DNA of 64,000 nt, taken from NCBI GenBank assembly GCA_045106455.1, contig JBGCEL010000004.1, forward strand, positions 6,434-70,433. Reading direction: 5' to 3'. Of this stretch, positions 19,028 through 36,550 are shown one piece after another; within the stretch, counting starts at the first letter, position 1, and every line of letters starts with the position of its first letter. This DNA comes from Gammaproteobacteria bacterium (lineage in GTDB: Bacteria; Pseudomonadota; Gammaproteobacteria; Steroidobacterales; JBCCMA01). Both the position numbers and the translations under genes were made by a program. The notes under the pieces are model-generated. The model was not told the DNA's origin. It ran no database searches and saw nothing but the letters and a program-made list of their open reading frames with translations.

Positions 19028-19760
19028 CGATAAAAACCTCGATGAACTGGCTCACGAGATGGCACGTGGCCTGCAACCTGCGAACACGCCATCGCAGCTC
19101 ACCGACGCTGAGCTCCAGGCCTATCTTGATGGTCCCGGTGGTGCCGATATCGAAACTCGATTGGCGCGGGACGATGCCGCTCGCCAACGTCTTGCAACGC
19201 TCGCCGGTGTCGCGCCAGTCGTGGCGCCGACCGCCGTGCGAGAACGCATTCTGGGCCCGGAACCAGCACCGGTTCAACCTAATTGGCTCACCCGCATCGC
19301 CGCCGTCGTGGCGATGCTTGCCGTTGGGCTGGCGGTCTGGATGAGCGGTCCGACCGGTCCGACGGCTGAGCAGCGCCGCGCCTTCGCCGCACTCGACTAC
19401 TCGACCTCATTGCAAGGGCTGGCGCGAGTACGCGGCGTCAATGATGCGCGACCTGCCAGCGCCTATCCCGACAGTTTGGTCAGCATTGAGATTACACCCA
19501 CGGTGAGCACTTCTCTGCCGCTGCACTACGCGCTGTTCGCAGGCCGTCCGCCGCACCAACAACGACTGCAGCCCGTAAGCATACAGTCCAACCGCGGCGC
19601 CGTGACGCTGAAATTTCATCCCGAGCAGTACGCCGCGTTGCAACCCGGTCCGCTGCGCTTGCAAGTGGTTGTAAGTTTGCACGAGCTGCCAACAGACGCC
19701 TCACTTTTTGATAAGCGCGATAAAATTTTCGATTACGACCTGCTGATTCTGGCTCGCTAA
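19020..19760 (+). CDS. single-pass membrane protein with anti-sigma-factor-like N-terminus
   Basis: LTDAELQAYLDGPGGADIETRLARDDAARQRLATL resembles the anti-sigma (ZAS/RskA-type) N-domain but lacks the H/C zinc ligands. One TM helix (WLTRIAAVVAMLAVGLAVWM). Periplasmic C-domain of about 130 aa. ATGAATGA overlap with the CHAT gene stop. Confidence 0.5.
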   Translation: MNDDKNLDELAHEMARGLQPANTPSQLTDAELQAYLDGPGGADIETRLARDDAARQRLATLAGVAPVVAPTAVRERILGPEPAPVQPNWLTRIAAVVAMLAVGLAVWMSGPTGPTAEQRRAFAALDYSTSLQGLARVRGVNDARPASAYPDSLVSIEITPTVSTSLPLHYALFAGRPPHQQRLQPVSIQSNRGAVTLKFHPEQYAALQPGPLRLQVVVSLHELPTDASLFDKRDKIFDYDLLILAR

Positions 19761-19772
19761 AATCAGCACACG

Positions 19773-21413
19773 ATGGCGCACGACGCCACCACGGAGACCA
19801 CGACCATGACTCACTTCACACCAAAACTAACCCCTCTACGCGGCGCCGCGGCCGCCCTGTGCGTCACGTTGTGCGCCGGTGCTCAAGGAGACGTCACGTG
19901 GCAGCTCTACGATCGACAGTGCGCTCTCGACAACGTCGAGGAGCAATTCGCATGCGGTAACTACGGTCGGTTTTATCTAAACGGTGCGAGCCCGACAGAA
20001 TCTTGCGACGTGATTGCCGAGGGCAGCGACAATTCACTCCCGTATTTTGCGGTCCGAAACGTAGAACCGTTCCCCTCCGTTCCGGTTGTGCCAGCGGGAC
20101 AGCGTGCCGCCACGGCCTCAGCGACCGCCTTAACACAACATCCATTGCAACTTATCGACCAGACACCGTTTCCTAGCGCCATACCGTGGCTGGCCATGAT
20201 CGATTTCGCTGGCGCTCACGGCAACAGCGTGCATTGGCTGGCGCAGGCGGTCGCGGGTAGTGGCATCGCAAGCCGCACCATTTTGTTGGATGATCCGGAT
20301 CAAAATCCCGACGGCAACGTGACCGATCTCGACGTCTTGCGTTCTTTGTGTCAGGTGGCCAATGTGGCACAGCGCGCTCCGCATTTGCGACCCGTCGTCA
20401 ATATGAGCTTCGGTCGCCCCATTGCCGATACAGACCCTGTGAACACCATGACGTGCAGTGGGCCGCAGTTCAGCTGTCAAATTCTGCGCGTGACGCAACA
20501 CCTTGCGCAGCGCGATGCGCTGCTCGTCGCAGCCGGTGGCAAGCAACGCGAAACCCTGTTCCCTGCCGCACTCGAAACGGTCATCGCCGCCGGGCAGCTG
20601 GATCCTTCGGAGTTTGTGCTCACCAAGAACGCGCAGGCAACGTGGGAGATGCCCGCAGGCACCAATGCGTTGATGCCCGGGAACGGCTTGTGTATTCGCG
20701 GCGGCTGGTCTGCACCTTCCGGCGCGTCGTACGCCAGCGCTTTCCTTGCCGGCTGGCTGGCATTTGCCGCAAGCGACAACCCCGGTTTCGATCTGCATAC
20801 CGGTGTGCTGCAGCCGATTCATTCTCCCGCGCGTAATTGCCACGTGCTCGGCACGGACAGTGGCGGCGAACTGAGCGCGTGCAACGCCTACGTCGAGGAG
20901 GTGTTTCAGGGCATCGGCGGTCAGTATCAATCCGGCTGCTGGAGCAACCCGATTGATTTGTCAGCGCACGTTGCGCTCGGCACGCCGACCGTCGAGCAGC
21001 CCGAAGCCGTGGGCGCCGTCACCTGGAACGCACAAGTGCGACCGGCACCCGAGGGCGACCCCTGTGTCCCCTGCACGGGCTCAAATTTCGCGCGCAACGC
21101 ACCGGACACCGGCGACCTGACAATCAATCTGGCCAGCACGCTGCCCATGCGCCCCAATCTTGCAATTGAAAGCGTGCATGTCCGGGTGGACGCGCTGTTT
21201 TACCCACTGCTCGCCAGCGCCGATGTACTAAGCGCACTGCATGCCGGCCAGGTAGATGAGCTGGTTTTAAAAAACGCCGCGCCTCTGGTGACACAGGCAG
21301 GCTCGGCATCCCTGTTTTTTCAACTGCGTGATACCAGCGCGGCCAGTTGCTCGGATTTGGTTGATGGCGAAGCGGGGTGCGCCTGGATGGCGACGCACAT
21401 TCATACGTTCTAG
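19773..21413 (+). CDS. secreted subtilase (S8)-like protein, divergent
   Basis: Signal-like region (AAAALCVTLCAGAQG). S8-like blocks: LAMIDFAGAHGNSVHWLAQAVAG, VVNMSFG, LVAAGGKQ, SGASYASAFLAGWLA (Ser block). The Asp-His spacing is atypically short, so activity is uncertain. Confidence 0.5.
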   Translation: MAHDATTETTTMTHFTPKLTPLRGAAAALCVTLCAGAQGDVTWQLYDRQCALDNVEEQFACGNYGRFYLNGASPTESCDVIAEGSDNSLPYFAVRNVEPFPSVPVVPAGQRAATASATALTQHPLQLIDQTPFPSAIPWLAMIDFAGAHGNSVHWLAQAVAGSGIASRTILLDDPDQNPDGNVTDLDVLRSLCQVANVAQRAPHLRPVVNMSFGRPIADTDPVNTMTCSGPQFSCQILRVTQHLAQRDALLVAAGGKQRETLFPAALETVIAAGQLDPSEFVLTKNAQATWEMPAGTNALMPGNGLCIRGGWSAPSGASYASAFLAGWLAFAASDNPGFDLHTGVLQPIHSPARNCHVLGTDSGGELSACNAYVEEVFQGIGGQYQSGCWSNPIDLSAHVALGTPTVEQPEAVGAVTWNAQVRPAPEGDPCVPCTGSNFARNAPDTGDLTINLASTLPMRPNLAIESVHVRVDALFYPLLASADVLSALHAGQVDELVLKNAAPLVTQAGSASLFFQLRDTSAASCSDLVDGEAGCAWMATHIHTF

Positions 21414-23313: not shown

Positions 23314-25227
23314 CTAGCGCGGAATCACCGTGCCGGCATAGATACGCACATAGTCCACCAGCATCTCCACCGGCTCATCGCCATCAAAAATGCTGTCATC
23401 CAAGCCCTGTTGGCCGCCCCAGCCGCCGCCCCAGGCCAGATTCAGAATGAGCTTGAACTCGTTGCCCGCCTCTTTTGCCCACGGCCAACCCAAATGGTCA
23501 TCCAGCGGCGTGTGATCGTGACCGTAGCCATTCATGTCGGGTGCATCGCGAAAGAACCCCTCGCGATCGCCGACCACGCCGTCACCGAGGTCCATCTTCG
23601 TCACCCGAACGTCATCGACGAACATCTCAATGGAACCGGGCTTCCAGACCAAGCGATAAACATGAAAATTTTCGGACACCGGCTCGGCATGGGCGAAGGT
23701 CATGCCCTGCCCCGTTTTGCCGGGGCGTCGATGCGGCCATAAAAAGCCGTTCGACTTATTTCTGTGCAAAGTGTGGTGCGTGCGATGCAGGCCTTGCGCC
23801 TCCTCGAACCCGACCGCTTCCATCAAATCGATCTCACCGGCATCCGGCCAACCAATCGTAAAGGGGCTTTCGGGTGTATGGTCTTTTTTACCCAGCAGCC
23901 AGATGGCAGGCCACGTGCCCCGCCCCGCCGGGACTTTTGCTCGCACCTCATAAATACCGTGCGGCATATCCACCAAATACGGCGTGCCGAAGCCATCTTT
24001 GCGCGTCGAGACCGCGCCGCTGGTGTACTGAAACGTTTGTCCGTTGGCTTGCAAGCAAGACACGTTTTCTTTTTTAAGCTCCAGCACCAGATAGCCGTTG
24101 GACTGGCCTTCCTGCGTGCGCGTCTCAACCCGCACGTTGGAAATGCCGGCATCCTGATACGCGGGGTCATCGCTTGTGTAGCACTGACGTTCGTTGTTAA
24201 TCACGCTACCGGTATTGTAGTCCCAGTAAGCGGGATTAATACGTCCGCCGTGCGTGTCATTAAATTCCTCGTCAAAATGCAGCACATAGTCCGGCGAGAC
24301 CACGGCAAGCGCACTAAAGAAACTTATATTTGGACTGCCTTCGCTCGCCACGGTCGATGCATTGGTGCGTACTTCAATATTGTGGTGCACCGTTGCCGTC
24401 GCCGTTTCGTATGCACACCGGTAGAGCGGGCGTGCTTCGCGCACGTCACAGATTTTTACGCCGTCCACAAAAAGACGAAACCACTGCGTGTCAGGCACCG
24501 AAGCCGCAAACGTGATCGGCGTATTGGTCGCCACACTGTGGGTGGAATCCGGGAACAGCACGATATCGCCCGCCTCCCCGCCAACGGTCAGCGCGCTAAA
24601 AAACTGCTGATTGGGGTTATCTGGTGTCACCACAAGTTCGGTGTTGGTGCGCACCTCGACTTCGTAGCGTCCTGTGGCCACCGGCACGGTATACGCGCAT
24701 TGATATACAGGACGGGGTTCGCGCAGGTCGCAAATCTTGACGCCGTTCACAAACATTCTGAACCACGCCGTGCCGGGCACTTGCGCCTGCAACACCACCT
24801 GCGAACCCGCCTGCACATCGTGCTCTGAATCGGGCGTCAGACTGATCGCGGAGCTACCGGTTTCACTAACCAGCGTGCTGAAGAAGCTCGCATTGGGGCT
24901 GTCCGGCGTAACTTGCGTGGAGCGATTGGTACGCACCTCTACCTGCACGCTCCCGGCCACCGCCGAGGTGGTATAGCGACAGACGTAGAACGGTCGCGGC
25001 TGGCGCACATCACAAATCTTGACGCCGTCCACGAACAGTCGAAACCACGCCGTGTTGGCCACCTGAGCGACAAGCGTTACTTCCGTGTTCGCCGTCACGA
25101 AATGCGAAGACCCTGAGGTCAACACGAAATTTGAAGCGCTTTGGGCCGAAAAAGACGGCGCGGCGGTTTCGCCTGCACAGGCGGTGAGAGAAAGAGCGAT
25201 CAAAACAATCGAGAAAACATACTTCAT
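23314..25227 (-). CDS. GH16 beta-glucanase (laminarinase-type) lipoprotein with three N-terminal tandem modules
   Basis: Start re-picked at ATG 25227, giving MKYVFSIVLIALSLTAC (lipobox). C-terminal GH16 domain with FDEEFND..., catalytic GEIDLMEAVG (ExDxxE) and ...VDYVRIY. Confidence 0.85.
   Translation of the reverse strand: MKYVFSIVLIALSLTACAGETAAPSFSAQSASNFVLTSGSSHFVTANTEVTLVAQVANTAWFRLFVDGVKICDVRQPRPFYVCRYTTSAVAGSVQVEVRTNRSTQVTPDSPNASFFSTLVSETGSSAISLTPDSEHDVQAGSQVVLQAQVPGTAWFRMFVNGVKICDLREPRPVYQCAYTVPVATGRYEVEVRTNTELVVTPDNPNQQFFSALTVGGEAGDIVLFPDSTHSVATNTPITFAASVPDTQWFRLFVDGVKICDVREARPLYRCAYETATATVHHNIEVRTNASTVASEGSPNISFFSALAVVSPDYVLHFDEEFNDTHGGRINPAYWDYNTGSVINNERQCYTSDDPAYQDAGISNVRVETRTQEGQSNGYLVLELKKENVSCLQANGQTFQYTSGAVSTRKDGFGTPYLVDMPHGIYEVRAKVPAGRGTWPAIWLLGKKDHTPESPFTIGWPDAGEIDLMEAVGFEEAQGLHRTHHTLHRNKSNGFLWPHRRPGKTGQGMTFAHAEPVSENFHVYRLVWKPGSIEMFVDDVRVTKMDLGDGVVGDREGFFRDAPDMNGYGHDHTPLDDHLGWPWAKEAGNEFKLILNLAWGGGWGGQQGLDDSIFDGDEPVEMLVDYVRIYAGTVIPR
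24295..25131 (-). repeat. three tandem 94-aa protein modules (unknown fold, possible carbohydrate-binding/Ig-like) inside the GH16 gene
   Basis: Period is about 94 aa (modules of 94, 94 and 91 aa as I delimit them). The shared core is (A/T)WFR(L/M)FV(D/N)GVKICD(V/L)R(Q/E)(P/A)RP(F/V/L)Y(V/Q/R)C(R/A)Y...EVEVRTN...(T/G)(P/S)(D/P)(S/N)PN...FFS(T/A)L. Each copy has a conserved Cys pair. Confidence 0.7.
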
Positions 25228-25469
25228 GAAAAAAAAATCCTGAGGCCTGAGCACGGCAGTCTTAACGTAATTCGGCCGAAGTATAACGCAACCCACGCGG
25301 TAACAATTTTCCATATTGTGCAAATTCTTGTGGCAAAGCCCGCGGCCATTGACGCCAATTTGACCTGTGTCCCAATTCCCCCACGACATTATTCCCATCC
25401 GGCCACGCACGCTTTAGATTGATGGAGATCCACCGCTAACGGCCTAACGACGTTCAAACCGACCCCTCT

Positions 25470-27227
25470 ATGACGAAAGACTGTGCAACTCGGTGGCTCT
25501 CTTTGCTTTGCAGTATGATCCCCGGCGTTCGCACCGCGTATTATGTCAATGCGGCAACACCTACTTGTGAGCAGCACATTGTCGCCAGCTACCCAGATGG
25601 CGCCACACCAAACGACGCTATTGAAGCGCTTGTACGCGACACACTGGTTGCGCAAGAGGAAATTGCTCGGCCCGTGCCGGGCGTGGCTATCCCGTCCAAA
25701 AGCTGGGCACTGGCACGACTCGTCGCGGTCGCCAACAGCGTGGGCGTCGTTGCACTTGAATTCGATGACACGACACAAGAGCAGCTAGCCGCTATCGGCC
25801 AACTCGTCGCGTGGGCTGGCCAATGGGCCACACTCGCACAGCCCGCTGCCATGGCGGTCAACCGCCACGAGCCAGACCTGAACCTGGCAAACGTGCTGCT
25901 GGAAGCCGCCACACTTGATCAAGCGCTCGCTAAGGCCTGTCGACACTTGTCCGGGAAGTTTGGCGGCACTCGTGTTGCCATCGGGCTGCACGCGGCGGAC
26001 GCCGTTTCTCTTGCCGCCGTCTCGGATCGCGCAGCATTCGACCGCCGCACGCAAAGCGCCGACCTGTATACGGTCGCGATGAATGAAGCGTTTGATCAAA
26101 GCCGTATTGTCGCCCACCCGCACACGGACACTACCGTTGCCGCCGTTAGCGTCGGCCACCGCAAGCTCGCCGATGCCGAGCGCTCCTGCGCGTGCAGCGT
26201 GCCACTTGGCACGAGCGGCGATCCGGCAGGCATCGTCACGCTGCTGCGCGCTGAATCCAAACCATTCACCGATGACGACATGGCGATGTTGCAACCGTAC
26301 GCCGCTTTGCTCGGGCACATCATCCACGTTCGCCGTCGGGCTGAGCAGGGACCTTGGCGTCGCCTGCGTCAGTCCATGCAGAGTTGGCGCAAACATTGGC
26401 TCATGGCCAATGCCCCGCGTCGCCGGATGGCGGTGGTCGGTGCCGCGGCCGTCATTGCGTTTCTGGCTCTGGGCTCTGCCCCGTATCAGGTGGGCGCACC
26501 GGCGGTTCTGGCCGGCACTTCGGAGCGCACCCTCGCCGCTCCGGTGGACGGTTACTTAAGCGAGGTGCACGTGCGCCCCGGCGCACGCGTTGCGAGTGGT
26601 CAAATTTTAGCCACGCTCGACCCGGCGCCACTGGAACGCCAACGCCGACAGTTGCAGGGCCAGCGTAGCCAACTCAACGGCGAGTACAACGTCGCGCTGG
26701 GCAAATTAGACGGTGCCGCGGCCCGCATTTTGCAGTCTCAACTCGCCCAAACTCATGTCCAGATCGAACATCTGGATGCGCAGCTCTCAAGACTCAATAT
26801 CACGGCGCCATTCGACGGCCTGGTTCTTGATGGCGATCTGATGCACGCCGCGGGCGGCCCCGTCGCACTCGGCGACACCCTTTTCCGACTGACCCCGAAC
26901 GGGGGCTATCTGGTGCGCTTGCACGTCTCGGCGAGCGACGTCGAAGCGATTGGCATTGGCGCACGCGGCCGCCTAAAACTAGCGGCACTGCCCAATGCGC
27001 AGCTGGACATTGAAGTGGTGCGAATTAACGGCATCGCACAAACCGTTGACGGCCGCAGCGTGCTGGAGATGGAAGCCACCGTACACGGCAATCAGGACTA
27101 TCTGCGCCCCGGCATGAAAGGCGTTGCACGGCTCGATGCGGGGCACGCCCGAGTTCTGTGGATCTGGACGCATTCAATTTGGCAACGCATGAAGCTCTGG
27201 TTGTGGCGCTTCAGCCCGGTGGCATAA
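25470..27227 (+). CDS. GAF-domain / TM / HlyD-type periplasmic adaptor fusion protein
   Basis: The cytoplasmic N-half ends in a typical GAF C-terminus (SVPLGTSGDPAGIVTLLRAESKPFTDDDMAMLQPYAALLGHII). One TM helix (MAVVGAAAVIAFLALGSAPY). Adaptor motifs: PVDGYLSEVHVRPGARVASGQILATLD, a coiled-coil hairpin, and ITAPFDGLVLDGDL. Confidence 0.7.
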   Translation: MTKDCATRWLSLLCSMIPGVRTAYYVNAATPTCEQHIVASYPDGATPNDAIEALVRDTLVAQEEIARPVPGVAIPSKSWALARLVAVANSVGVVALEFDDTTQEQLAAIGQLVAWAGQWATLAQPAAMAVNRHEPDLNLANVLLEAATLDQALAKACRHLSGKFGGTRVAIGLHAADAVSLAAVSDRAAFDRRTQSADLYTVAMNEAFDQSRIVAHPHTDTTVAAVSVGHRKLADAERSCACSVPLGTSGDPAGIVTLLRAESKPFTDDDMAMLQPYAALLGHIIHVRRRAEQGPWRRLRQSMQSWRKHWLMANAPRRRMAVVGAAAVIAFLALGSAPYQVGAPAVLAGTSERTLAAPVDGYLSEVHVRPGARVASGQILATLDPAPLERQRRQLQGQRSQLNGEYNVALGKLDGAAARILQSQLAQTHVQIEHLDAQLSRLNITAPFDGLVLDGDLMHAAGGPVALGDTLFRLTPNGGYLVRLHVSASDVEAIGIGARGRLKLAALPNAQLDIEVVRINGIAQTVDGRSVLEMEATVHGNQDYLRPGMKGVARLDAGHARVLWIWTHSIWQRMKLWLWRFSPVA

Positions 27228-29351
27228 ATGCACGCAACCCACACACCCACGCCAACTACCTTTACGCCGTGCCTGACACGCGATGCCAGCGTGCATCGTC
27301 ACAGTTATCGCGGTACGCCGTGGTACATCGTGCACGACGGCATGACCGGACGTAGCCTTCATTTGGCCGCCGGTGCGTGGCGCGTTATCGACGCGATGGA
27401 CGGGCGCCGTTCGCCAGAGGAAATACTCGCGTACTTGCAACGCAACGGTGCACCGGTGCAGGCGAACGATGTGCACAGCGTCTGCGCCGAGTTACTGCGC
27501 GCCGGTCTCCTGCAAGGGACGACTTGTGAACAGGCGGATTCGCTGCAACTGGCAAGCCAGCCGCCCCCCCGCTGGAAACAGTGGCTAACCTCCCCACTTT
27601 CTATTCGCCTGCCGCTGCTTAACCCGCAAGTCTGGCTCGACAAACGTATTGCCAACGTAAGGCCCCTGTTCACGTCCACCACGCTGTGGCTGTGGCTGTC
27701 CGTCGTGATCACGGCCTGCTTTATGGCCGTCAGTCACCAAAACGAGCTGACCGAACGCGTCGCCTCGACCGTGATCAGCCCGTACGGCGTCATCCTGTTT
27801 TTGAGCGTTTACGCAGTAATGAAGTCACTGCACGAACTCGCCCATGCGTTTAGCATCCGGGCCTTCGGTGGCGCCGTCAACGAAATGGGCCTGGTGTTTC
27901 TGGTGTTCATGCCGGTGCCCTACGTCGATGCGGCCGCTGCCACCACGTTTGTCAACAAACGCCAGCGTATGCTCGTGAGCGCGTCGGGCATCATGGTAGA
28001 GGCATTTATTGGCGCGATCGCGCTGATACTCTGGACCAAAATCGAGCCCGGCGTGGTACGCGAAATCTGTTTCGCGGCGCTCATTATCGGTGGCGTCTCG
28101 ACGCTTTTGTTCAACGGCAATCCGTTGCTGCGCTTTGACGGCTACTACGTCTTAAGCGACGCTCTGGAAATACCAAATCTCGCCACCCGCTCGCGCCGCT
28201 ATTTGCACTATGCGATACAGCGGTACATGTTGCGCATGAAAGACGCTATTACTCCGGTTGTCACGCCCTCCGAACGCCTTTGGTTTGTGCTGTACGGCGT
28301 GCTGTCATCCATTTACCGTCTGATCATCCTTGCATTCATTGTCTGGTTTGTATCGCGCCAGGTGCCGTTGGTCGGCTACGCACTGGGCGCCTGGGTGTTT
28401 GTGTCGCAGTTGTTGCTACCAGCATTGCGTGGGTTTACCAGCGTCGTGACGCGGGCGCGCAACGCCACCAACTCGCGGCAAGTGTTATCCCGACTTAGCG
28501 CTACAACGCTCGCCTGCGGTGTCGTGACATTCGGCTTGCCAATGCCGGCGTGGAGCAGCGCTGAGGGCGTGATCTGGATGCCGCCAGAGGCGCAGGTTCG
28601 GGCACCCGTTGACGGCACGGTGGCCACAACACTGCTGGGCGACGGGACCAGCATCGTGCCCGAACAAGCCATTGTGCAGCTCGAAAGCCCGTCGCTTGTG
28701 AATGACGCGCGCGTGATAGCCGAACAGCTCAATGAAGTCCGCGCCCGCCAAAACCTTGCTCTGTTTCGCGATCGCAGCGCACTACGCAGCGTGGCTGAAA
28801 ACCTGCACCAGACCGAAATGCGTCTGACAGAAGCCCAACAGAAAGTACGTTCACTAACGCTAAAGAGTCCGGTCGCCGGTGCGCTGCATTTTTTCGATGA
28901 GAACACGCTCGCCGGGCGCTACGTGCGCAAGGGCGAGGTTCTCGCGTACGTGCGCGATGATCAGGCGCCTATTGTGCGCGTGGTCGTGAAACAAACGCAG
29001 ATCGAAAAACTACGCGACCCGAATACGAATGTTCGCGTGCTCATACCCGGTTATTTGGATCGGCAGTTCGCCGCCACTTTGGTGCAAGAGGTTGGGGCCA
29101 CGACTAACACGCTACCCAGCGCCGCATTGGGTAGCGCGGGCGGCGGCCGCATCGCCACAAATCTGACCGATGAACACCGTCGCACAGCGGCCGAGGACGT
29201 ATTTATCCTCGATGTCCAGCTGGCACCGAACGCACCCGACGTGGCGATCGGCACGCGCGTCTACCTACGCTTCGACTACGCCCCGGCTCCGTTGGCTCAG
29301 CAAATGCTGCGCAGCCTGCGCCAGCTCACGCTCGGTGGCAGCCGTGCGTAA
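27228..29351 (+). CDS. PqqD-like domain / site-2-protease (M50) membrane domain / HlyD-type adaptor tri-fusion
   Basis: TAAATG junction with the upstream gene. N-terminal WYIVHDGMTGRSLHLAAGAWRVIDAMDGRRSPEEILAYL...LLRAGLL is PqqD/RRE-like. Polytopic region carries HELAH (HExxH, 27831-27845) and NGNPLLRFDG (S2P NxxPxxxxDG, about 28113-28142). C-terminal adaptor region (VRAPVDGTV..., coiled coil, LKSPVAGAL). Confidence 0.75.
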   Translation: MHATHTPTPTTFTPCLTRDASVHRHSYRGTPWYIVHDGMTGRSLHLAAGAWRVIDAMDGRRSPEEILAYLQRNGAPVQANDVHSVCAELLRAGLLQGTTCEQADSLQLASQPPPRWKQWLTSPLSIRLPLLNPQVWLDKRIANVRPLFTSTTLWLWLSVVITACFMAVSHQNELTERVASTVISPYGVILFLSVYAVMKSLHELAHAFSIRAFGGAVNEMGLVFLVFMPVPYVDAAAATTFVNKRQRMLVSASGIMVEAFIGAIALILWTKIEPGVVREICFAALIIGGVSTLLFNGNPLLRFDGYYVLSDALEIPNLATRSRRYLHYAIQRYMLRMKDAITPVVTPSERLWFVLYGVLSSIYRLIILAFIVWFVSRQVPLVGYALGAWVFVSQLLLPALRGFTSVVTRARNATNSRQVLSRLSATTLACGVVTFGLPMPAWSSAEGVIWMPPEAQVRAPVDGTVATTLLGDGTSIVPEQAIVQLESPSLVNDARVIAEQLNEVRARQNLALFRDRSALRSVAENLHQTEMRLTEAQQKVRSLTLKSPVAGALHFFDENTLAGRYVRKGEVLAYVRDDQAPIVRVVVKQTQIEKLRDPNTNVRVLIPGYLDRQFAATLVQEVGATTNTLPSAALGSAGGGRIATNLTDEHRRTAAEDVFILDVQLAPNAPDVAIGTRVYLRFDYAPAPLAQQMLRSLRQLTLGGSRA

Positions 29352-29400: not shown

Positions 29401-30807
29401 ATGCATCAGTCATTTTTCGCCCCACTCGTTTGCGCCATCATGACCGTTGCTGTGGGCAGCACAACGCTTGCCGACGAGTTCGATGCGCACACCCTGAACT
29501 GCGTGATCCTGCCGGACGAGGTCGTCGACATCAGCAGCTCGGTGCCCGGTGTGCTCGAGCAAGTATTGGTGGAGCGCAGCGATAAGATTCAAAAGGGCCA
29601 GGTGCTGGCACGGTTGGAGGCAAGCGTAGAACAGGCGGTCACAGCGTTGGCGGAAGCACGTGCCACGGCCATCTCTGAACTGCGACTACGCCAGACCGAG
29701 CTCGGCTACGATGTTCAGCATCGTGATCGACTGTCTGAATTACAGCAACGCCATGTCGCATCATCGCAATCTTACGAAGACGCGCAGCGCACGGCAGAAG
29801 CCGCGCGCTGGCGACTCAAACTTGCCGAGGAGCGGCGCGAAGAGGCGCAGCTGGATCAACGCCGTGTCGCCGCCCTGCTCGCACAAAAGACCATTCGCAG
29901 TCCCATCGACGGCGTCGTTATCGCGCGGCATCACTCGGTGGGTGAACATGTTAATAGCGAGGCCGTGGTAACGGTCGCCAGGCTCGACCCGCTGCGGGTA
30001 GAGGTGCTTACGCCGATTGACATGTTCGGCAAAATTCAGCCGGGCATGCTGATGGACGTGCGTGCTGAGATCGACCCACAGACGCGGCACACGGCCGAAG
30101 TCGTGGCCGTGGACCCGGTAGCCGATGCCGGCAGCGGCATGTTTGCCGTTGAGCTCACGTTGCCCAACCCGAATAACGCGCTGCCTGCCGGCATCAAGTG
30201 TTACAGCGAACTGAGCCCAGGCGAGCAACCCTCGCCGACCGCCGCGCCCGCATCCACGGTGGCAGATGCACCCAACCCTGTGACGCCCTCGCCCACCCCC
30301 GTGATCACGGCAAACTTTGATGCCAGCGAACTGTGCCGTGTCTTTCCGGCTGTGACCGAACCCGAATCCATCTCGCGCTTGATGCGCACTGCGGTTGTGC
30401 TGGGTGGACGCGCGCAGAAAATACGCGCCGATGTTGCGGTAGCGAACGGCTACATTGTTGCCTCGCCCCGAGCCGACGCAGCGCAGCTTGAGCAGTGGCA
30501 AGAAACCTTAGGCGCGGCGGGCGAAAACGACACCGCCGTAATGCAACGCGGCGATTTTCGTCAGCGACTGACGATGGGCACCTACAACGGACCGCGCTCG
30601 GCAGAGCGCCGTCGCGATCAAATTGCCGCGCTTGGCGTAAGCGCAGAGGTGCTGCCACGCATGCGCAGCGCCACGGCCTGGAAGATTGAGGTGCAGCTTC
30701 CACAGCCGCTGCCAGCGCCAACCGGCACCCCGCCGCTGGCCGCCTTCATGGAACGCTTTAACAGCGAAGCCGTGCCGTGTGCATCCATTCGCGCGGCGAG
30801 CCTCTAA
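29401..30807 (+). CDS. membrane-fusion (RND/HlyD-type) periplasmic adaptor with Pro-rich linker and C-terminal SPOR-like domain
   Basis: Start at ATG 29401 (signal/anchor MHQSFFAPLVCAIMTVAVGSTTLA). Adaptor motifs VVDISSSVPGVLEQVLVERSDKIQKGQVLARLE and IRSPIDGVVIARH. PSPTAAPASTVADAPNPVTPSPTP linker. The C-terminal RLTMGTYNGPRSAERRRDQIAALGVSAEV is SPOR-like. The track start 29170 is an over-extension. Confidence 0.7.
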   Translation: MHQSFFAPLVCAIMTVAVGSTTLADEFDAHTLNCVILPDEVVDISSSVPGVLEQVLVERSDKIQKGQVLARLEASVEQAVTALAEARATAISELRLRQTELGYDVQHRDRLSELQQRHVASSQSYEDAQRTAEAARWRLKLAEERREEAQLDQRRVAALLAQKTIRSPIDGVVIARHHSVGEHVNSEAVVTVARLDPLRVEVLTPIDMFGKIQPGMLMDVRAEIDPQTRHTAEVVAVDPVADAGSGMFAVELTLPNPNNALPAGIKCYSELSPGEQPSPTAAPASTVADAPNPVTPSPTPVITANFDASELCRVFPAVTEPESISRLMRTAVVLGGRAQKIRADVAVANGYIVASPRADAAQLEQWQETLGAAGENDTAVMQRGDFRQRLTMGTYNGPRSAERRRDQIAALGVSAEVLPRMRSATAWKIEVQLPQPLPAPTGTPPLAAFMERFNSEAVPCASIRAASL

Positions 30808-30814
30808 CGTACTC

Positions 30815-33800
30815 ATGACACGCAAACGATCATCCAGACGGCCCGCAAACGCACTGTCGTTTGCGGTCGAGGCGCTTGAGCCGCGGCTGTTGCTGTCGGC
30901 GGACTGGGCGCTGGGCCTGGCGCCGGATGATGTGCGCGATGATCCGTTCGATCTGGATGCCGCCGCGGCCCATCGAGTGTTACGTGCACTCGGTTCTGAA
31001 GCCCCGTTGCCCGCCTCGATGGATCTGGAACATTTTATGGCACTGCAGCCGGCGACGCCGGAATTTGCCAATGATCAGTCCTTGGCAGAGAAGCCGTCGC
31101 GCACCGATTTTAGACTGCTATCCGGCGATGCCCCGCAAAGTGTTGACGACGGCTATTCGGTAAACGAAGACGAATCGATCACGTTCAACGCCGTGTGGTT
31201 CGACCCGGATTGGATCGCACGCCGTGAACTCACCATCGACAACAGCGCCAGCGCCACTGATCTCAACGACTTTCCGGTATTGATCACGCTCGACGCATCG
31301 CGTATCGACTACAGCCTTACCGAGGATGACGGCGACGATCTGCGCTTCACGGATGACGCCGGCAATCTGCTGGATTACGAGATCGAGCTGTGGGACGAAA
31401 GCGGCACGTCTTACGTATGGGTTCGAGTGGACAGCATTACGGCCGGCTCGACGACCGAGAGTATTTACATGTATTACGGCAATTCCAGCGCCGGCGAAGG
31501 GCAATCGCCCCGGGACGTCTGGGATGCCAACTATCAGCAAGTCCAGCATTTGGAGGAAACAAGCGGCAACTACGATGATTCCACCGCCAATGGTGTTGAC
31601 ATCAGTCTTAGCGGCGGCGACCCCCACGGCGACGACATGTTCATCGGTCCCGCCCATGCTTTTGACGGCACCAACGAACTCGACAGCCAACCTGAAGCAC
31701 TCGATGACAGTCGCGCTGCCGGCACAATTTCCATGTGGGTGGAATTTGATGAGCGCTCCGGCGTGATCAACCTGCTGACCTCGGACGTCGCGCGCGATCA
31801 AGCGATTTGGACTGACGACGGTACGTTTCACGTAGCAATGGCCACGAACTTGTTTACCTTTAGTAACCTGTCCGGAGGGTCGATCGAAAACGGCTGGAAT
31901 CAGGTCGTATTCACTTGGGACAGCGTCACCGGCGAACAGGCGCTTTACGCCAACGGCCTATTGGTCGATCAGGTATCGGTGGGCGCATGGGACCCGGATG
32001 GCGTGGACGGCAACACCATCAACATCGGTGGCGCCGCCGACGCCTTTCTGGGCTTTTTTCCCGAGCGCGACGGCCTCCAGGGCGGCATCGATGAAATACG
32101 CGTGTCCGACGTGGCGCGCTCGGCCGATTGGGTGGCCGCACAGTTCGCCACCATCAACGACAATTTTATTAGCTATGGTGCCGAAGAAGGGGCTGCCCGC
32201 GGCGTGCTGGAAAACGACACCGATGCCGAGAACGATGTGCTGGCCGCGGTCCTTGAAACCGGTCCGAGCAATGCCGCATCGTTTACGCTGTTTGCCGACG
32301 GCAGTTTCGAATACACGCCGCAGGCCAATTTCGTCGGCACCGACTCGTTTACCTACCGCGCCGATGACGGCAGCAGTCTCTCGGCGGCCGCGGCGACGGT
32401 CACCATCACCGTCAACGCGGTGAACGACGCCCCGACGTTCACGCTTGGCGGCGCACAGAACGTGAACGAAGATGGCGGTGGACAGAGTGTGGCGAATTTC
32501 TCCGTCGCCTCTGCGGGAGGCGGCGCTGATGAGTCGGGCCAAACGTTTACGTACATCGTCACCGGCGACAACCCGGGCCTGTTTTCGGTAGCACCGAGTA
32601 TTGATGCGGACGGCACACTTACCTACACGCTGGCACCTAACGCCGTTGGCAGCGCCAACCTGACCGTGCAGATGTCCGATTCCGGTGGCACGGCCAATGG
32701 CGGTAGTGACGCCGCTGTCGCGGAAAACTTTGTGATCAACGTTGCTCCCGTAAACGACGCACCTTCGGCCACGTTACTTGGCAACCAAACGGTCGTCGAG
32801 AATGCCGGCCCGCAGGCAGTGGCAAACTTTGCCGCCGGTTTTACGGGTGGTGGCGCGGATGAGAGCGGGCAAAACTTGTCTTATACGGTCATAACCGGTT
32901 TTCCCGCGCTGTTCAGCGCTGCTCCGGCCATCTCTCCCGACGGCACGCTGACGTTCACATTTGCCGACGGGATGTCTGGCTCCACCACGGTGGACGTGAT
33001 TGTCAGGGACGATGGGGGCACTGCGAATGGCGGTCAAGACACCTCTACCACCTACACCTTCACTCTGACCGCGACGCCGGCGTCGGTACCGCCGACGGCG
33101 CTGAACATGGATCAGACACTCAGCTACATTGAAGACAACACGCTCGACCTCGCGAACATCATTGTCAGCGACGGCGATGCCGGCGATGTGATTACCGCAA
33201 CGCTCACGCTGGCCGATCCATTGGCAGGTAGTTTGAGCACGCTCAGCGGCGCAGGCGAAACGTACGTAGCGGCCACGGGACGCTGGCGCATCGTGGGCAC
33301 GCAAGCCGAAGTGAACACCGCACTCGCCAACGTCACGTTCGTCCCGGCTGCCAACTACGCGCTGGATACGAGCATTGCAGTGAATATTCAAGATGCGGAC
33401 GGAACCGGCCCTGCGGATGGGCTGATCGAGCTTAACGCCCTGGCCGTTAACGATGCGCCCTCCGCAACGCTCGCAGGCGACGTCAACGTTTTGGAGAACT
33501 CAGGACCACAAACCATCGCCGGATTTGCGGTTGGATTTGTCGGTGGCGGTACTGATGAGGCCGGTCAAGCACTCACTTATATAGTGAGCGCTGATCAGGT
33601 CAACATGTTTAGCAGCGGCCCGGTGATTTCCTCGGACGGCACCCTGAGCTTCACCACCGCGGACAACGTTACCGGCAGTGCAACCGTTCGCGTGCGCGTG
33701 ATCGACGATGGCAACACCGCCAATGGCGGGCAAAATCAGTCGGTCGACTACACGTTCAATATCATCATCAATGATCGGCCCGATGCACCGACGACCACCA

Positions 33801-36550
33801 ACATGAACCAAGTCGTGCTGTATACCGAAGACGGCGGCCCGGTCGACTTTGCGGACATGGTGGTGAGCGACGACGATCCGGGCGAGACGATTACCGCAAC
33901 GCTAACACTCGCTGATCCCACAGCCGGCGTGTTGACCACGCTCAGCGGTTCGGGCGAGACCTACAATGCCGTTGCCGGTCAGTGGCAAATCACCGGCAAC
34001 GCAGCCACCGTGAATGCGGCGCTTGCCAATCTATCGTTCGCGCCCGGTGCAAACTACGCGCTCGATACGAGCATCAACGTGCGTATTGTCGACGCCGCCG
34101 GCACTGGCCCGTCCGACGGAACGATCGCGCTGCAGGCGATCGCCATCAACGATACACCCCAGGCCATCTTTGCCGGCGATATTGCCGTGGACCAGAACGC
34201 CGGAGCTCAAACTTTTGCAGGCTTCGCGACACCGTCCCCCGGTGGTGGCACAGATGAACTCGCACAAACATTTACCTATACCGTCACCGTGGATAACGGC
34301 GCTTTATTTAGCGTTGCGCCCGCCATCACGCCCGACGGTACGCTCACGTTTACGGCCGCGGACAACACTTCCGGCAGCACCACGGTACGCGTGCGCGTCA
34401 CCGATAGCGGCGACACCGTCAATGGCGGTCAAGACCAGTCGATCGAATATGTGTTCCAAATTGACATCGGCGCACCCACTGCGACCAACTTGAATCAGGT
34501 CGTCAACTACATTGAAGACGGCGACCCGGTTGGGTTTGATGCCATTGTCGTAAGCAATGCTGCCCCGGATGAAACCATTACAGCGACACTCAGCCTGAGC
34601 GATCCGGCCGCCGGATCGCTGTCCACTGCAAGCGGTTTGGGCGAGACATTGACCACCTCAGGACAGTGGCGAATCACCGGCACCGTCGCACAGGTCAACG
34701 CCGCACTTGCCGACGTCACGTTTACGGCTGCGAACAATTACGCACAAGACTTGAGCATTGTCGTGCGCATCACCGATGCGGCCGGAAACGGGCCTGCTGA
34801 TGGTTTGCTGGCCCTCCAGGCAACCGCCGTCAATGATGCACCACTGGCAAGCCAGCTCAATCAAATCCAGAATTTTCTGGAAGACACCATTGACGTGGCG
34901 CTCAACGACATTGTGGTCAGTGATGTTGACGCCGGCGACGTTGTTTCTGCCACGTTAACCCTGGACAACCCGGCGGCAGGACAGCTGTCGAGCTCGAGTG
35001 GCAACGGCGAATCCTATGACGCACGCAGCGGCACCTGGCGCGTCAGTGGTAGCACGGCGCAAGTGAGTGCCGCCCTGGCCGCTGTCGTGTTCGAACCGCT
35101 GAATGATTTTGCCGGCAGTGTCAGCGTACGCACACAGATTGTGGATCAAGACGGTGCCGGGCCCGATGCCGGCGTCATTACTCTGCAGGCCACGGCCGTA
35201 AACGATGCACCAACCGTCGCCGTTTCCGGCGATTTGGTGGTTGACGAAGACGCCCCGGCCCAACGCATAGCCGGCTTTGCAAACGTGCTAGACAACGGCG
35301 GCGCGGACGAGAGCGGTCAAACCATCGTCTACAGTCTCAGCACCGACAATGAAGATTTATTCCGGGTCGCACCCTCCATCAGCGAGACGGGCGAACTCCA
35401 TTACGAGCTTGCCGCCAACGCCAACGGCACCGCCAACATCACCGTCGTGGCGCGCGATGATGGCGGTCGCGACAACGGCGGCGTCGACACGGCTCCTACA
35501 CAGCAGTTCGTGATTCAGGTCAATCCTGTCAACGACGCGCCGGAAGCAACCAGCCAGTTTGTGGTCGCGCCGCCCTCTGGCATTGTGGTGCTGTCAGCGG
35601 CTTCGTTCGGATTTACCGATCCCGCCGATGGCGATACCTTCGAAGGCGTATTTATTACAAGTTTGCCAGCGCAAGGCGAACTGTTGCTCGACGGTCAACC
35701 CGTGGCCGCCGGCGCGTTCGTTTCGGCCGCCGATCTTGTCGCAAATCGGCTGTCGCTGTCGTCGTTTGCCATACCCGGCGATAGCCTGCTACTGAGTTTC
35801 GATTTTCTAGTCCGTGACTCGGGTGGTACCGCCGATGGCGGCACCGACGTGGCGGTCAAGACCAGCACGATTACGATATCTGTCGACGTACCCAAGACGG
35901 ACGGCACCACGAACACAACACCAGCCGTGATCTCAGAAGCCGACGCCTCGGCCGACACGACCACCGCAACGGTCGTCAGCGACGCGGATCAGTCGACCGA
36001 TGAACAGCGGTCTGCTCCCGCGATCGACCTGAGCACGCCGGCAAGCCCTGCAACCCTTGCGCCCACGGTCGCCGTCACAACGCCGGTGACGAGCCTGCTC
36101 GAGATTCCCCAAGCCGCCGATGCAACCCAAGCGGCGAAGACTTTCAGTCCGGCGGTATCGCGTGTGCTGGTTTCACTGCTCGAAAATGTCCGCTCCGGCA
36201 TTGGCGATGCCACTGTCATCCAGACCACGGCCACCACGACGCTTGCGGCCGTCACCGAGATACTCGTGGAGCAACTTAGCGACCTGCGCGACGAAACCGG
36301 CGCCGAGCAGGCCTCGGAGGAACTGGTCATCATGCAGTCCAGCGCGGTGGCCTTCGGCTTGTCGGTAGGCTACGTCTCCTGGTTGCTGCGTGGCGGTGTG
36401 TTGGTCAGCAGCATGCTTACCTCCCTGCCGGCCTGGCGCTTTATTGATCCATTGCCGATTTTCTCGGGCGTACGACAAGGTGACGAGGACGAAGAGTCGT
36501 TGCAGGATATCGTCAGCGCCGACGAGCACGACACAGGACCACAAGCGTGA
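30815..36550 (+). CDS. 1911-aa repeat adhesin-like protein: LEPR-XLL N-terminus, DUF2341 + LamG-like, about 100-aa VNDAP-delimited repeats, C-terminal membrane anchor
   Basis: ATG 30815 lies 8 nt after the upstream stop. N-terminus MTRKRSSRRPANALSFAVEALEPRLLLSAD. DUF2341-like block (RRELTIDNSASATDLNDFPVLITLD...YVWVRVDSI...IYMYYGN). LamG-like block (...IDEIRVSDVARSADWVAAQF). Ten repeat modules follow. C-terminal hydrophobic segment AVAFGLSVGYVSWLLRGGVLVSSMLTSLPAW, then an acidic tail. Confidence 0.8.
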   Translation: MTRKRSSRRPANALSFAVEALEPRLLLSADWALGLAPDDVRDDPFDLDAAAAHRVLRALGSEAPLPASMDLEHFMALQPATPEFANDQSLAEKPSRTDFRLLSGDAPQSVDDGYSVNEDESITFNAVWFDPDWIARRELTIDNSASATDLNDFPVLITLDASRIDYSLTEDDGDDLRFTDDAGNLLDYEIELWDESGTSYVWVRVDSITAGSTTESIYMYYGNSSAGEGQSPRDVWDANYQQVQHLEETSGNYDDSTANGVDISLSGGDPHGDDMFIGPAHAFDGTNELDSQPEALDDSRAAGTISMWVEFDERSGVINLLTSDVARDQAIWTDDGTFHVAMATNLFTFSNLSGGSIENGWNQVVFTWDSVTGEQALYANGLLVDQVSVGAWDPDGVDGNTINIGGAADAFLGFFPERDGLQGGIDEIRVSDVARSADWVAAQFATINDNFISYGAEEGAARGVLENDTDAENDVLAAVLETGPSNAASFTLFADGSFEYTPQANFVGTDSFTYRADDGSSLSAAAATVTITVNAVNDAPTFTLGGAQNVNEDGGGQSVANFSVASAGGGADESGQTFTYIVTGDNPGLFSVAPSIDADGTLTYTLAPNAVGSANLTVQMSDSGGTANGGSDAAVAENFVINVAPVNDAPSATLLGNQTVVENAGPQAVANFAAGFTGGGADESGQNLSYTVITGFPALFSAAPAISPDGTLTFTFADGMSGSTTVDVIVRDDGGTANGGQDTSTTYTFTLTATPASVPPTALNMDQTLSYIEDNTLDLANIIVSDGDAGDVITATLTLADPLAGSLSTLSGAGETYVAATGRWRIVGTQAEVNTALANVTFVPAANYALDTSIAVNIQDADGTGPADGLIELNALAVNDAPSATLAGDVNVLENSGPQTIAGFAVGFVGGGTDEAGQALTYIVSADQVNMFSSGPVISSDGTLSFTTADNVTGSATVRVRVIDDGNTANGGQNQSVDYTFNIIINDRPDAPTTTNMNQVVLYTEDGGPVDFADMVVSDDDPGETITATLTLADPTAGVLTTLSGSGETYNAVAGQWQITGNAATVNAALANLSFAPGANYALDTSINVRIVDAAGTGPSDGTIALQAIAINDTPQAIFAGDIAVDQNAGAQTFAGFATPSPGGGTDELAQTFTYTVTVDNGALFSVAPAITPDGTLTFTAADNTSGSTTVRVRVTDSGDTVNGGQDQSIEYVFQIDIGAPTATNLNQVVNYIEDGDPVGFDAIVVSNAAPDETITATLSLSDPAAGSLSTASGLGETLTTSGQWRITGTVAQVNAALADVTFTAANNYAQDLSIVVRITDAAGNGPADGLLALQATAVNDAPLASQLNQIQNFLEDTIDVALNDIVVSDVDAGDVVSATLTLDNPAAGQLSSSSGNGESYDARSGTWRVSGSTAQVSAALAAVVFEPLNDFAGSVSVRTQIVDQDGAGPDAGVITLQATAVNDAPTVAVSGDLVVDEDAPAQRIAGFANVLDNGGADESGQTIVYSLSTDNEDLFRVAPSISETGELHYELAANANGTANITVVARDDGGRDNGGVDTAPTQQFVIQVNPVNDAPEATSQFVVAPPSGIVVLSAASFGFTDPADGDTFEGVFITSLPAQGELLLDGQPVAAGAFVSAADLVANRLSLSSFAIPGDSLLLSFDFLVRDSGGTADGGTDVAVKTSTITISVDVPKTDGTTNTTPAVISEADASADTTTATVVSDADQSTDEQRSAPAIDLSTPASPATLAPTVAVTTPVTSLLEIPQAADATQAAKTFSPAVSRVLVSLLENVRSGIGDATVIQTTATTTLAAVTEILVEQLSDLRDETGAEQASEELVIMQSSAVAFGLSVGYVSWLLRGGVLVSSMLTSLPAWRFIDPLPIFSGVRQGDEDEESLQDIVSADEHDTGPQA
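32420..35890 (+). repeat. ten tandem ~110-120-aa modules of three types (order A-A-B-A-B-A-B-B-A-C) within the adhesin gene
   Basis: Most junctions carry VNDAP. Type A consensus: ...ENxGxQxxxxFAxxxxGGGxDExGQxxTYxV...LFSxxPxIxxDGTLTFT...GSxxVxVxVxDxGxTANGGxD. Type B consensus: ...NxxQxxxYxEDxxxxxxxIVVSDxDxGxxITATLTLxDPxAGxLxTxSGxGETY...WxIxGxxAxVNxALAxxxF...DAxGxGPxDGxIxLxAxA. Boundaries are approximate. Confidence 0.7.

Follow-up and report, generated by a model that had tools for sequence, protein, structure and literature searches.

A predicted RRE–site-2 protease–HlyD fusion protein genomically linked to giant LEPR-XLL adhesins, with a putative role in their export

Results

A three-domain fusion protein in an adaptor operon

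We analyzed a stretch of DNA of 64,000 nucleotides from a gammaproteobacterium of the Steroidobacterales (GenBank assembly GCA_045106455.1, contig JBGCEL010000004.1, positions 6,434 to 70,433 of the forward strand), here called the window, and focus on a gene whose product fuses a PqqD-like recognition element of the kind that binds precursors of peptides that are made on the ribosome and modified after translation (RiPPs), or RRE, to a site-2 protease (S2P/M50) membrane core and to a periplasmic adaptor of the HlyD or membrane fusion protein (MFP) family. The gene stands between two further HlyD-type adaptor genes, and the gene for a giant repeat protein carrying an N-terminal LEPR-XLL motif follows. 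Coordinates are window positions throughout, and residues are numbered in the 707-residue fusion protein unless stated otherwise. The gene and its parts are as follows.

27228–29351, forward strand: gene of the fusion (RRE, S2P/M50 core and HlyD adaptor), ATG start, 707 residues; open reading frame (ORF) call and independent public gene call
27267–27518, forward strand: RRE/PqqD-like winged-helix domain, predicted cytoplasmic, residues ~14–97; from a family profile, an AlphaFold2 (AF2) model, Foldseek and Pfam matches of homologues
27615–28538, forward strand: S2P-like membrane core, residues ~130–437; from hydropathy, the positive-inside rule, AF2, model NF041824 and Pfam matches of homologues
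27831–27845, forward strand: HELAH zinc-binding/catalytic motif, residues 202–206, at the cytoplasmic end of the second transmembrane helix (TM2)
28113–28142, forward strand: NGNPLLRFDG, the second S2P motif (NxxPxxxxDG), residues 296–305, with Asp304 as third zinc ligand by motif
28539–29333, forward strand: periplasmic HlyD/MFP-type adaptor, residues ~438–702, with barrel-sandwich, alpha-hairpin (488–541) and beta-barrel

The ORF is real and its three-domain reading is confirmed. The public gene call, made independently on a contig of 26.5 kb, has an identical 707-residue product, with flanking products of 585, 468 and 1,911 residues, and the fusion is a large uncharacterised family: a search of 90%-identity clusters gave 4,941 matches at E ≤ 1e-5, and at 50% identity and E ≤ 1e-30 there are 3,697 clusters, the best 150 of which are nearly all close to full length (~700–740 residues; ~715 is typical of the family). 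Current annotations of these proteins are inconsistent ("peptidase M50", "HlyD family adaptor", "hypothetical"), and a literature search found no description of the operon, of the LEPR-XLL tag or of the fusion. A Pfam scan of the 30 homologues in our alignment (A1) recovered HlyD_3 in 29, Peptidase_M50 (PF02163) in 25, HlyD_D23 in 23 and PqqD (PF05402) in 17. On its own, the window protein is significant only for HlyD_3 in Pfam and for the daptide intramembrane metalloprotease model NF041824 in NCBIfam, and the M50 and PqqD assignments therefore rest on family-level and structural evidence. An earlier reading made from the sequence only had divided the protein into the same three domains, a division borne out by the family matches, the N-domain profile, the AF2 and Foldseek results and the HlyD_3 match.

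The N-terminal domain resembles leader-binding RREs

The AF2 model of the N-terminal domain (pLDDT >90 over residues 11–95) has the beta3-alpha3 order of the RRE/PqqD fold, in which a three-stranded sheet (20–27, 30–37 and 43–46) is followed by three helices (50–56, 63–72 and 79–91). The window protein alone matches the ApyI RRE model weakly (E 0.0013, residues 40–95) and has no Pfam PqqD match, and it is at the family level, in addition to the PqqD matches of the homologues, that profile A2, built from the first 128 residues, picks out Xanthomonas PqqD (3G2B, E 6e-5) among PDB sequences, with the whole domain covered. The top PDB neighbours of the model in Foldseek are RREs that were solved with leader peptides: the lasso-peptide B1 protein 6JX3_B (E 2.5e-3, TM-score 0.70), TbiB1 (5V1U/5V1V), PqqD (5SXY) and the CteB RRE (5WGG/5WHY), with TM-scores of 0.63–0.70 for 6JX3_B, 5V1U, 5SXY and 5WGG, and also TigE, TruD and TglHI. 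The profile, the model and its structural neighbours agree with the PqqD/RRE winged helix that the sequence-only reading had placed at residues about 25–100, and the domain is RRE-like and predicted to be cytoplasmic rather than periplasmic.

The membrane core keeps both S2P motifs

HELAH and NGNPLLRFDG are found intact where they had been read from the sequence, and both are conserved in the family: H202, E203, H206, N296, G297, N298, P299, L300, L301 and D304 are invariant in A1, HExxH is kept in 106 of 106 homologues from the loci that we fetched, and the exact N..P....DG pattern is present in 88 of these 106; of the 18 that deviate we read eight, each of which has D-A for D-G with the Asp kept. 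Judged by this conservation (HExxH in every homologue, N..P....D(G/A) in all that were read), the catalytic motifs are under selection. PF02163 does not match the window protein at E <0.01, and the best match among the homologues has an E-value of 6.6e-7.

Topology was predicted from the sequence by hydropathy and the positive-inside rule. In this layout, TM1 (150–170) and TM2 (185–205), with HELAH at its cytoplasmic end, are followed by a re-entrant hairpin (215–232), TM3 (247–270) and TM4 (276–296), which ends in NGNPLLRFDG; a K/R-rich cytoplasmic segment with helices (296–350), TM5 (350–377), TM6 (380–403), an Arg-rich cytoplasmic loop and TM7 (420–437) then lead into the periplasmic adaptor. 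The core thus carries HExxH within a transmembrane helix and the second motif with its Asp, as an S2P does. The RRE and the protease active site are predicted to lie on the same, cytoplasmic, side of the membrane, which is the arrangement required for capture of a leader followed by its cleavage, and the adaptor is predicted to be periplasmic.

Three HlyD-family adaptors are encoded in a row

The C-terminal third of the fusion, which had been taken from the sequence for a barrel-sandwich/coiled-coil adaptor, proves on both fold and profile to be a genuine member of the HlyD adaptor family: HlyD_3 matches residues 544–619 with 32.9 bits against a cut-off of 22.2 in Pfam, this part of the full-length AF2 model (pLDDT 81.3) finds MexA, AcrA and MacA in Foldseek with E-values down to 1.5e-11, and the best PDB sequence match of the family profile is an MFP of the type found in type I secretion systems (T1SS), 8DCK_C (E 3.4e-6). 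The neighbouring genes and the downstream repeat protein are listed below.

25470–27227, forward strand: GAF-HlyD, 585 residues, with Pfam GAF_2, HlyD_3, HlyD_D23 and Biotin_lipoyl_2
29401–30807, forward strand: third adaptor, HlyD3, 468 residues, from an independent gene call, with N-terminal signal/anchor MHQSFFAPLVCAIMTVAVGSTTLA
30815–36550, forward strand: 1,911-residue LEPR-XLL repeat protein, the putative substrate, with DUF2341, Big_9/tandem-95 and cadherin-like repeats (Pfam, NCBIfam)
30815–30904, forward strand: LEPR-XLL leader MTRKRSSRRPANALSFAVEALEPRLLLSAD, a basic n-region followed by the conserved motif (NF012209, motif scan and logo)
36338–36463, forward strand: C-terminal hydrophobic segment of the repeat protein, SSAVAFGLSVGYVSWLLRGGVLVSSMLTSLPAWRFIDPLPIF, its residues 1842–1883, followed by an acidic tail

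The stop codon of the GAF-HlyD gene abuts the start of the fusion gene. In its own numbering, GAF-HlyD comprises a cytoplasmic N-terminal region with a GAF domain (147–286), a transmembrane helix (318–341) after an Arg-rich stretch and a periplasmic adaptor (343–559). HlyD3 consists of its signal/anchor, an adaptor domain, a Pro-rich linker and a C-terminal domain of ~170 residues (window positions 30250–30807) that has no Pfam match and looks by eye like a SPOR-like repeat; short versions of HlyD3 (~290 residues), which are common in operons that contain SecA, are without this extra domain. An alternative HlyD3 start in the ORF list, the ATG at 29170 (a 180-nt overlap with the fusion gene), was rejected, as the public gene call and the analysis favour the ATG at 29401. 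Among the ORFs of the 64-kb window that were scanned, we found no gene for an inner-membrane transporter of the ATP-binding cassette (ABC), resistance-nodulation-division (RND) or major facilitator superfamily (MFS) type and none for a TolC-like protein, and no cognate inner-membrane transporter, the component by which tripartite pumps and type I systems are defined, accompanies the HlyD adaptors either in the operon or in the rest of the window.

The operon is widespread and in most lineages includes a truncated SecA

With A1 we found 80 species-level genome loci, which form the basis of the following counts. GAF-HlyD lies directly upstream of the fusion in 76 of them, and 62 have another HlyD-type adaptor gene downstream, giving the gene order GAF-HlyD, fusion, truncated SecA-like ATPase (61 of 80) and HlyD. 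The operon occurs in Gamma-, Beta-, Alpha- and Deltaproteobacteria, Myxococcota, Omnitrophota, Nitrospira and others, and its cultured carriers include Neptuniibacter caesariensis, Geomonas paludis and Methylobacterium brachythecii. The ATPase is a stand-alone protein of ~666 residues with SecA_DEAD, preprotein cross-linking and P-loop domains; its match to Bacillus subtilis SecA is confined to residues 41–603, so that most of the scaffold as well as the wing and the two-helix finger are missing. Examples are the following (strand not given).

L006, 12090–14087: truncated SecA-like gene of the operon locus
L035, 12896–14890: truncated SecA-like gene of the operon locus
L063, 12081–14075: truncated SecA-like gene of the operon locus
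L033, 12090–14105: truncated SecA-like gene of the operon locus

No SecA-like gene was found in the window or in locus L001 by tblastn, nor in the loci of P0002 and P0012. These two proteins are the closest relatives of the window fusion (51% and 41% identity), and their loci keep both the SecA-less synteny and the LEPR leader. The two further adaptors of the operon, and the truncated SecA-like ATPase of most other lineages, are context that the sequence-only reading had passed over.

A further gene, directly upstream of GAF-HlyD in 26 of the 80 loci (for example L063:7696–8034 and L022:7701–8048), encodes a DUF3467 protein of ~110 residues (E 4e-23) with the conserved pattern VRWDDSxMxTSYANVCNV...REEVTLLFG; in L067 and L071, DUF3467 is fused to another domain. 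No DUF3467 gene was found in the window by tblastn, and DUF3467 has no match among PDB sequences. Near some operons (L033:3868–6756, reverse strand; L052:3168–5735, reverse strand; L073:792–2435, forward strand; L071:3326–4459, forward strand) there are ORFs that by eye resemble tryptophan halogenases, along with an unassigned domain of ~270 residues (…ERSFK…LGHxSGGxDRDGxxFLTVYY); the two are sometimes fused to one another or to DUF3467.

LEPR-XLL giants and the fusion operon are reciprocally linked

The NCBIfam model NF012209 ("LEPR-XLL domain-containing protein") matches the N-terminus of the 1,911-residue adhesin (30815–31174) with 28.3 bits against a cut-off of 17, and 10 of 10 operon-adjacent N-termini that were tested pass this cut-off. 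A logo from 85 sites has a basic n-region of ~13–39 residues, then phi-phi-E-E-L-E-P-R-[LIV]-L-[LYF]-S-A-D, where phi is a hydrophobic residue, and finally a short, weakly hydrophobic stretch. The leader of the window adhesin has no hydrophobic h-region of the Sec type, and the LEPR-XLL leader is not a Sec signal peptide.

We show here, by comparison of gene neighbourhoods in two directions, that the fusion operon and the LEPR-XLL giants are reciprocally linked in genomes. In the forward direction, the 80 loci selected for the fusion and the window (1.34 Mb) were scanned in six frames for the LEPR motif, with reversed sequences as control; the motif occurs in 18 of the 80 loci and in the window, always beside the operon, and not once in the control. 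Of the 35 loci flanked by 8 kb or more on each side, 25 have a giant ORF adjoining the operon, upstream in 16 and downstream in 9. In the reverse direction, metagenome contigs were selected with an alignment of LEPR/DUF4347 N-termini, for which the patterns were solely [LM]E[PG]R[LVI]L[FYL]SA[DG] and the DUF4347 stretch; among the 31 loci with more than 5 kb upstream, operon components lie directly upstream in 25 and the fusion itself in 23. The LEPR motif is also kept in the relatives of the window L162 and L163, as VVETLEPRLLLSADW and RVELLEPRLLLAADW.

The giants themselves are diverse. In most lineages, the LEPR-XLL leader is followed by DUF4347 (E 1e-56; conserved motifs HIISHG, LIYGCN and DVAASDDLTG), and the window adhesin has DUF2341 at this place. 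Examples of DUF4347 after the leader are the following; it is also found in most of the metagenome loci L081–L160.

L053, 10458–11237: DUF4347 after the leader
L037, 7017–7916, reverse strand: DUF4347 after the leader
L009, 15659–16438: DUF4347 after the leader

When the last 1,200 residues of the L035 giant served as query, the homologues retrieved were all RTX-type fragments, at most ~2,000 residues long, with no full-length protein among them. On the contigs of two of these, P0126 and P0125, the upstream giant is split into pieces that total more than 6,200 residues and is still cut by the contig end. The upstream giants in L164 (1–16204) and L165 (1–9313) are several consecutive ORFs with RTX repeats, more than 6,200 residues in total and cut by the contig ends; if the "8K" of the model name LEPR-8K stands for protein length, giants this large would agree with it. 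At the other end of the window adhesin, the C-terminal segment is moderately hydrophobic (…GLSVGYVSWLLRGGVL…SLPAWRFIDPLPIF), is common to the giants of L001, L058, L065 and L078 and is possibly a membrane anchor; the C-termini of other operon-linked giants belong to two or more different motif classes.

Regulatory and other genes of the window

The adhesin gene is followed by two genes for signalling proteins.

36547–39051, forward strand: hybrid histidine kinase (PAS-HisKA-HATPase-REC-Hpt; Pfam), in the same position in L001 and L162
39050–40904, forward strand: REC-GGDEF-EAL protein of cyclic di-GMP (c-di-GMP) turnover (Pfam), with an approximate start (the ORF list has it from 38895) and synteny in L001, L162 and L157

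The pair also follows the adhesin in L001, L162 and L157; the hybrid kinase is likely a regulator of the adhesin locus, and the two neighbours suggest c-di-GMP control of the system. In loci of the Granulosicoccaceae, an ORF of ~1,090 residues that is similar to both window proteins comes directly after the last adaptor. Elsewhere in the window there are two proteins with GH16 domains, one of 698 residues (23314–25410, reverse strand) that diverges from the operon and one of 2,070 residues with Big_12 repeats (55221–61433, forward strand), and a G8/CEMIP beta-helix protein of 932 residues (9493–12291, reverse strand); the LEPR motif is present in none of the three. Upstream, in a row, lie genes for a CHAT-domain protein (966 residues, 16127–19027), a protein with a faint WCX match (246 residues, 19020–19760) and an S8 subtilase-like protein (546 residues, 19773–21413).

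Discussion

A model for recognition and processing of LEPR-XLL leaders

Altogether, the domain structure, the gene neighbourhoods and the relatives of the fusion make it probable, in our view, that this protein is the subunit which recognises the substrate and processes its leader in an export system that spans the envelope and is dedicated to the neighbouring giant LEPR-XLL adhesin. The leaders that RREs bind are linear, and RiPP leaders are taken up as an added beta-strand. In our model, the cytoplasmic RRE would capture the adhesin leader, that is, the basic stretch and the phi-phi-E-E-L-E-P-R-phi-L-phi-S-A-D motif, probably in this same way, with the leader segment EELEPRLLLSAD as candidate partner of RRE strand 43–46 and helix 79–91. 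The tethered S2P site, composed of HELAH and Asp304, would then remove the leader at the cytoplasmic face of the membrane, and the HlyD domain of the fusion, GAF-HlyD and HlyD3 would together form the conduit through the periplasm to an outer-membrane exit for which the window has no gene. The truncated SecA-like ATPase of the operon would be the likely motor in most lineages, and the clade of the window, which is without it, would have to draw its energy from another source; export may be coupled to c-di-GMP or other signalling by the hybrid kinase and the GGDEF-EAL protein encoded downstream, and possibly by the GAF domain as well. What our analysis shows is the identity of the domains, the conservation of the motifs and of the operon, the topology as predicted and the reciprocal genomic linkage to LEPR-XLL proteins; from these we infer the binding of the leader by the RRE, its cleavage and the cleavage site, as well as the stoichiometry, the energy source, the path across the inner membrane and the partner in the outer membrane.

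Reading of the adhesin's LEPR-XLL N-terminus by the RRE, which the sequence-only reading had suggested, is strongly but indirectly supported by the reciprocal synteny and has a precedent in the homologous daptide RRE-S2P enzyme, and capture and cleavage of the leader are proposed on the grounds of daptide homology, topology and LEPR linkage. The SecA-less clade keeps the RRE as the only recognisable peptide-binding module that co-varies with the tag, which argues for the RRE and against SecA as its probable reader. We speculate that the conserved R24, H25, R28, R42 and R45 of strands 1–3 (A1) could complement the acidic E-E-x-E of the leader.

Several observations weigh against this model. In Pfam, neither M50 nor PqqD is a significant match to the window fusion taken by itself, and the window contains no identified ABC, RND or MFS transporter, SecA-like gene or TolC-like gene. 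The stretch after the LEPR motif is no transmembrane helix, which is atypical for classical S2P substrates. About 20% of the LEPR loci are without the operon within 10 kb, and in the 16 of 35 well-flanked loci where the giant lies upstream its N-terminus is out of reach for a check of the LEPR-XLL motif.

Alternative functions of the fusion

Were the fusion a protease of release or quality control, S2P would cut the C-terminal segment of the adhesin, or another membrane-embedded part of it, and in this way release the surface protein or turn it over under the control of c-di-GMP, and the RRE would serve solely in docking or regulation. The sequence-only reading had offered cleavage of the C-terminal anchor as its alternative, and such a function would accommodate both the hydrophobic segment with acidic tail that the window adhesin shares with the giants of four other loci and the co-located hybrid kinase and GGDEF-EAL protein, by analogy to the control of LapA by LapG and LapD. 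We nevertheless regard it as unlikely, because most operon-linked giants have other C-termini and the feature that they share is the N-terminal LEPR motif, which is also the only conserved linear motif that an RRE, as a binder of linear leaders, could read. Moreover, S2P enzymes prefer segments in the N-in orientation close to the cytoplasmic side of the membrane, and the anchor of an exported protein would have the opposite, N-out/C-in, orientation. A further step down in probability, the S2P-like core might have a structural role only, as a membrane scaffold or channel for the assembly of adaptors or as a non-cleaving, chaperone-like receptor analogous to the C39-like domain of HlyB. With no other inner-membrane component in the window, the seven-helix core may indeed have to join the conduit; but both zinc-site motifs are kept across more than 100 diverse homologues, and pseudo-enzymes normally lose such motifs.

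Just as improbable as a purely structural role, in our estimate, is maturation and export of a small RiPP or bacteriocin, as in the daptide or YydH/LiaK systems, with the giants merely co-regulated. The best model matches of the fusion are to RiPP proteases (daptide_HExxH with 161 bits, YydH/LiaK with 43 bits), and HlyD models of NHLP bacteriocins match the flanking adaptors weakly, but all RiPP models score far below their cut-offs, the window yielded neither a RiPP tailoring enzyme nor an ABC exporter, and co-regulation alone would not account for a reciprocal linkage to LEPR proteins as strong as this. When ORFs of 110 or more residues were clustered all against all, no conserved precursor-like neighbour emerged either, the sole small conserved one being DUF3467, and on this clustering a small RiPP precursor was rejected as a candidate. 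Least probable of all, and in our view very unlikely, is generic tripartite efflux, of a small molecule or a polysaccharide, by a pump with no particular tie to the adhesin: the three MFP-type adaptors speak for it, but no RND, ABC or MFS pump gene was found, small-molecule efflux has no use for an RRE or a protease and the linkage to LEPR giants is strong.

Returning to leader recognition and processing by the fusion, we propose more tentatively, as a possibility that we hold with less than even confidence, that the fusion is the signature of an undescribed and widespread export pathway of diderm bacteria, in which giants of 2,000 to more than 6,000 residues carry a LEPR-XLL leader, the RRE reads this leader, the fused S2P removes it, a truncated SecA-like motor operates in most lineages and has been lost or replaced in the clade of the window, DUF3467 possibly acts as a chaperone and three adaptors form the conduit. 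A SecB-like role for DUF3467 is only a guess, because it has no PDB sequence relative. With the same reserve, such a pathway may be neither type I secretion, as it has no ABC transporter, nor classical Sec export, and LEPR-XLL would be a sorting signal in the way that PEP-CTERM is for exosortase.

To our knowledge, RREs are known only as readers of short natural-product precursors, and here such an element appears to have taken on the N-terminus of giant secreted proteins. If so, the orphan LEPR-XLL tag, now only an annotation label, would gain a cognate machine, ~3,700 sequence clusters would gain a function, and there would be a testable answer to how adhesins of multiple thousand residues are exported without Sec signals or ABC exporters. 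A connection would also arise between the stand-alone truncated SecA of most operons and the SecA-like domains, so far without explanation, that are reported within giant proteins. With three to five genes plus the cargo, the system is compact.

Comparison with known systems

All relatives of the RRE-S2P module that have been characterised are leader peptidases of RiPPs. The closest is the daptide enzyme MpaP/DapP, which, like the fusion, has an N-terminal RRE fused to an S2P core in a collinear arrangement: NF041824 aligns to residues 14–410 over model positions 1–376 of 379 (161.4 bits, E 3e-47), below the 300-bit cut-off of this family. In the daptide study, the leader carries the motif ELExMEAP, which resembles the EELEPR of the adhesin, and its removal is assigned to the RRE-dependent intramembrane peptidase MpaP. 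Unlike the daptide enzyme, the fusion has an additional HlyD adaptor of ~270 residues, a Gram-negative host and a presumed substrate of 1,911 residues as opposed to a peptide of ~25 residues. The YydH/LiaK model NF058609 covers only residues 149–318 and scores 42.7 bits against a cut-off of 225. Membership of the fusion in either family was rejected on these scores, and for daptides also on gene context, as no Thr-ending precursor, DUF-RRE, oxidative decarboxylase, aminotransferase or methyltransferase was found among the window genes scanned.

RseP, SpoIVFB and MjS2P share with the fusion the HExxH and NxxPxxxxDG motifs in transmembrane helices and an active site close to the cytoplasmic side, as predicted for the fusion; RseP, in addition, clears signal peptides. 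Similarity in sequence is very low: the match to the structure 3B4R (E 0.39) is confined to the HExxH region, and, in contrast to these proteases, the fusion has no PDZ or CBS domain and carries an RRE and a HlyD adaptor.

SecA domains without scaffold and wing have been described embedded in giant proteins, where they are thought to aid the export of these proteins (bioRxiv 10.1101/2023.11.21.568195), in a study that has no mention of HlyD or M50. Accessory SecA2 and embedded SecA systems are comparable to the 61 of 80 related operons that tie giants to a SecA devoid of scaffold, wing and two-helix finger. The operon SecA differs from embedded SecA in being a stand-alone gene within an adaptor and protease operon, and it is absent from the window.

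The T1SS for giant adhesins (HlyBD-TolC, and LapA/LapBCE with LapG/LapD) resemble the fusion operon in their HlyD-like adaptor, their giant repeat or RTX-like cargo and the c-di-GMP genes nearby. The fusion operon differs in having no ABC transporter, an N-terminal signal on the cargo in place of a C-terminal one, three different adaptors and, in most cases, a truncated SecA-like ATPase; neither an ABC gene nor a gene for an outer membrane factor was found in the window, and by these features the system is not type I secretion. Finally, peptidase-containing ABC (PCAT) exporters that work with an MFP, such as CvaAB-TolC for colicin V, remove the leader with a cytoplasmic peptidase at the exporter while a HlyD-family adaptor bridges to the outer membrane. 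The fusion would follow the same logic of export coupled to leader cleavage, with the difference that it has neither a C39 domain nor an ABC transporter, whose position a truncated SecA would fill in most lineages, and that its peptidase is intramembrane and fused to the adaptor itself.

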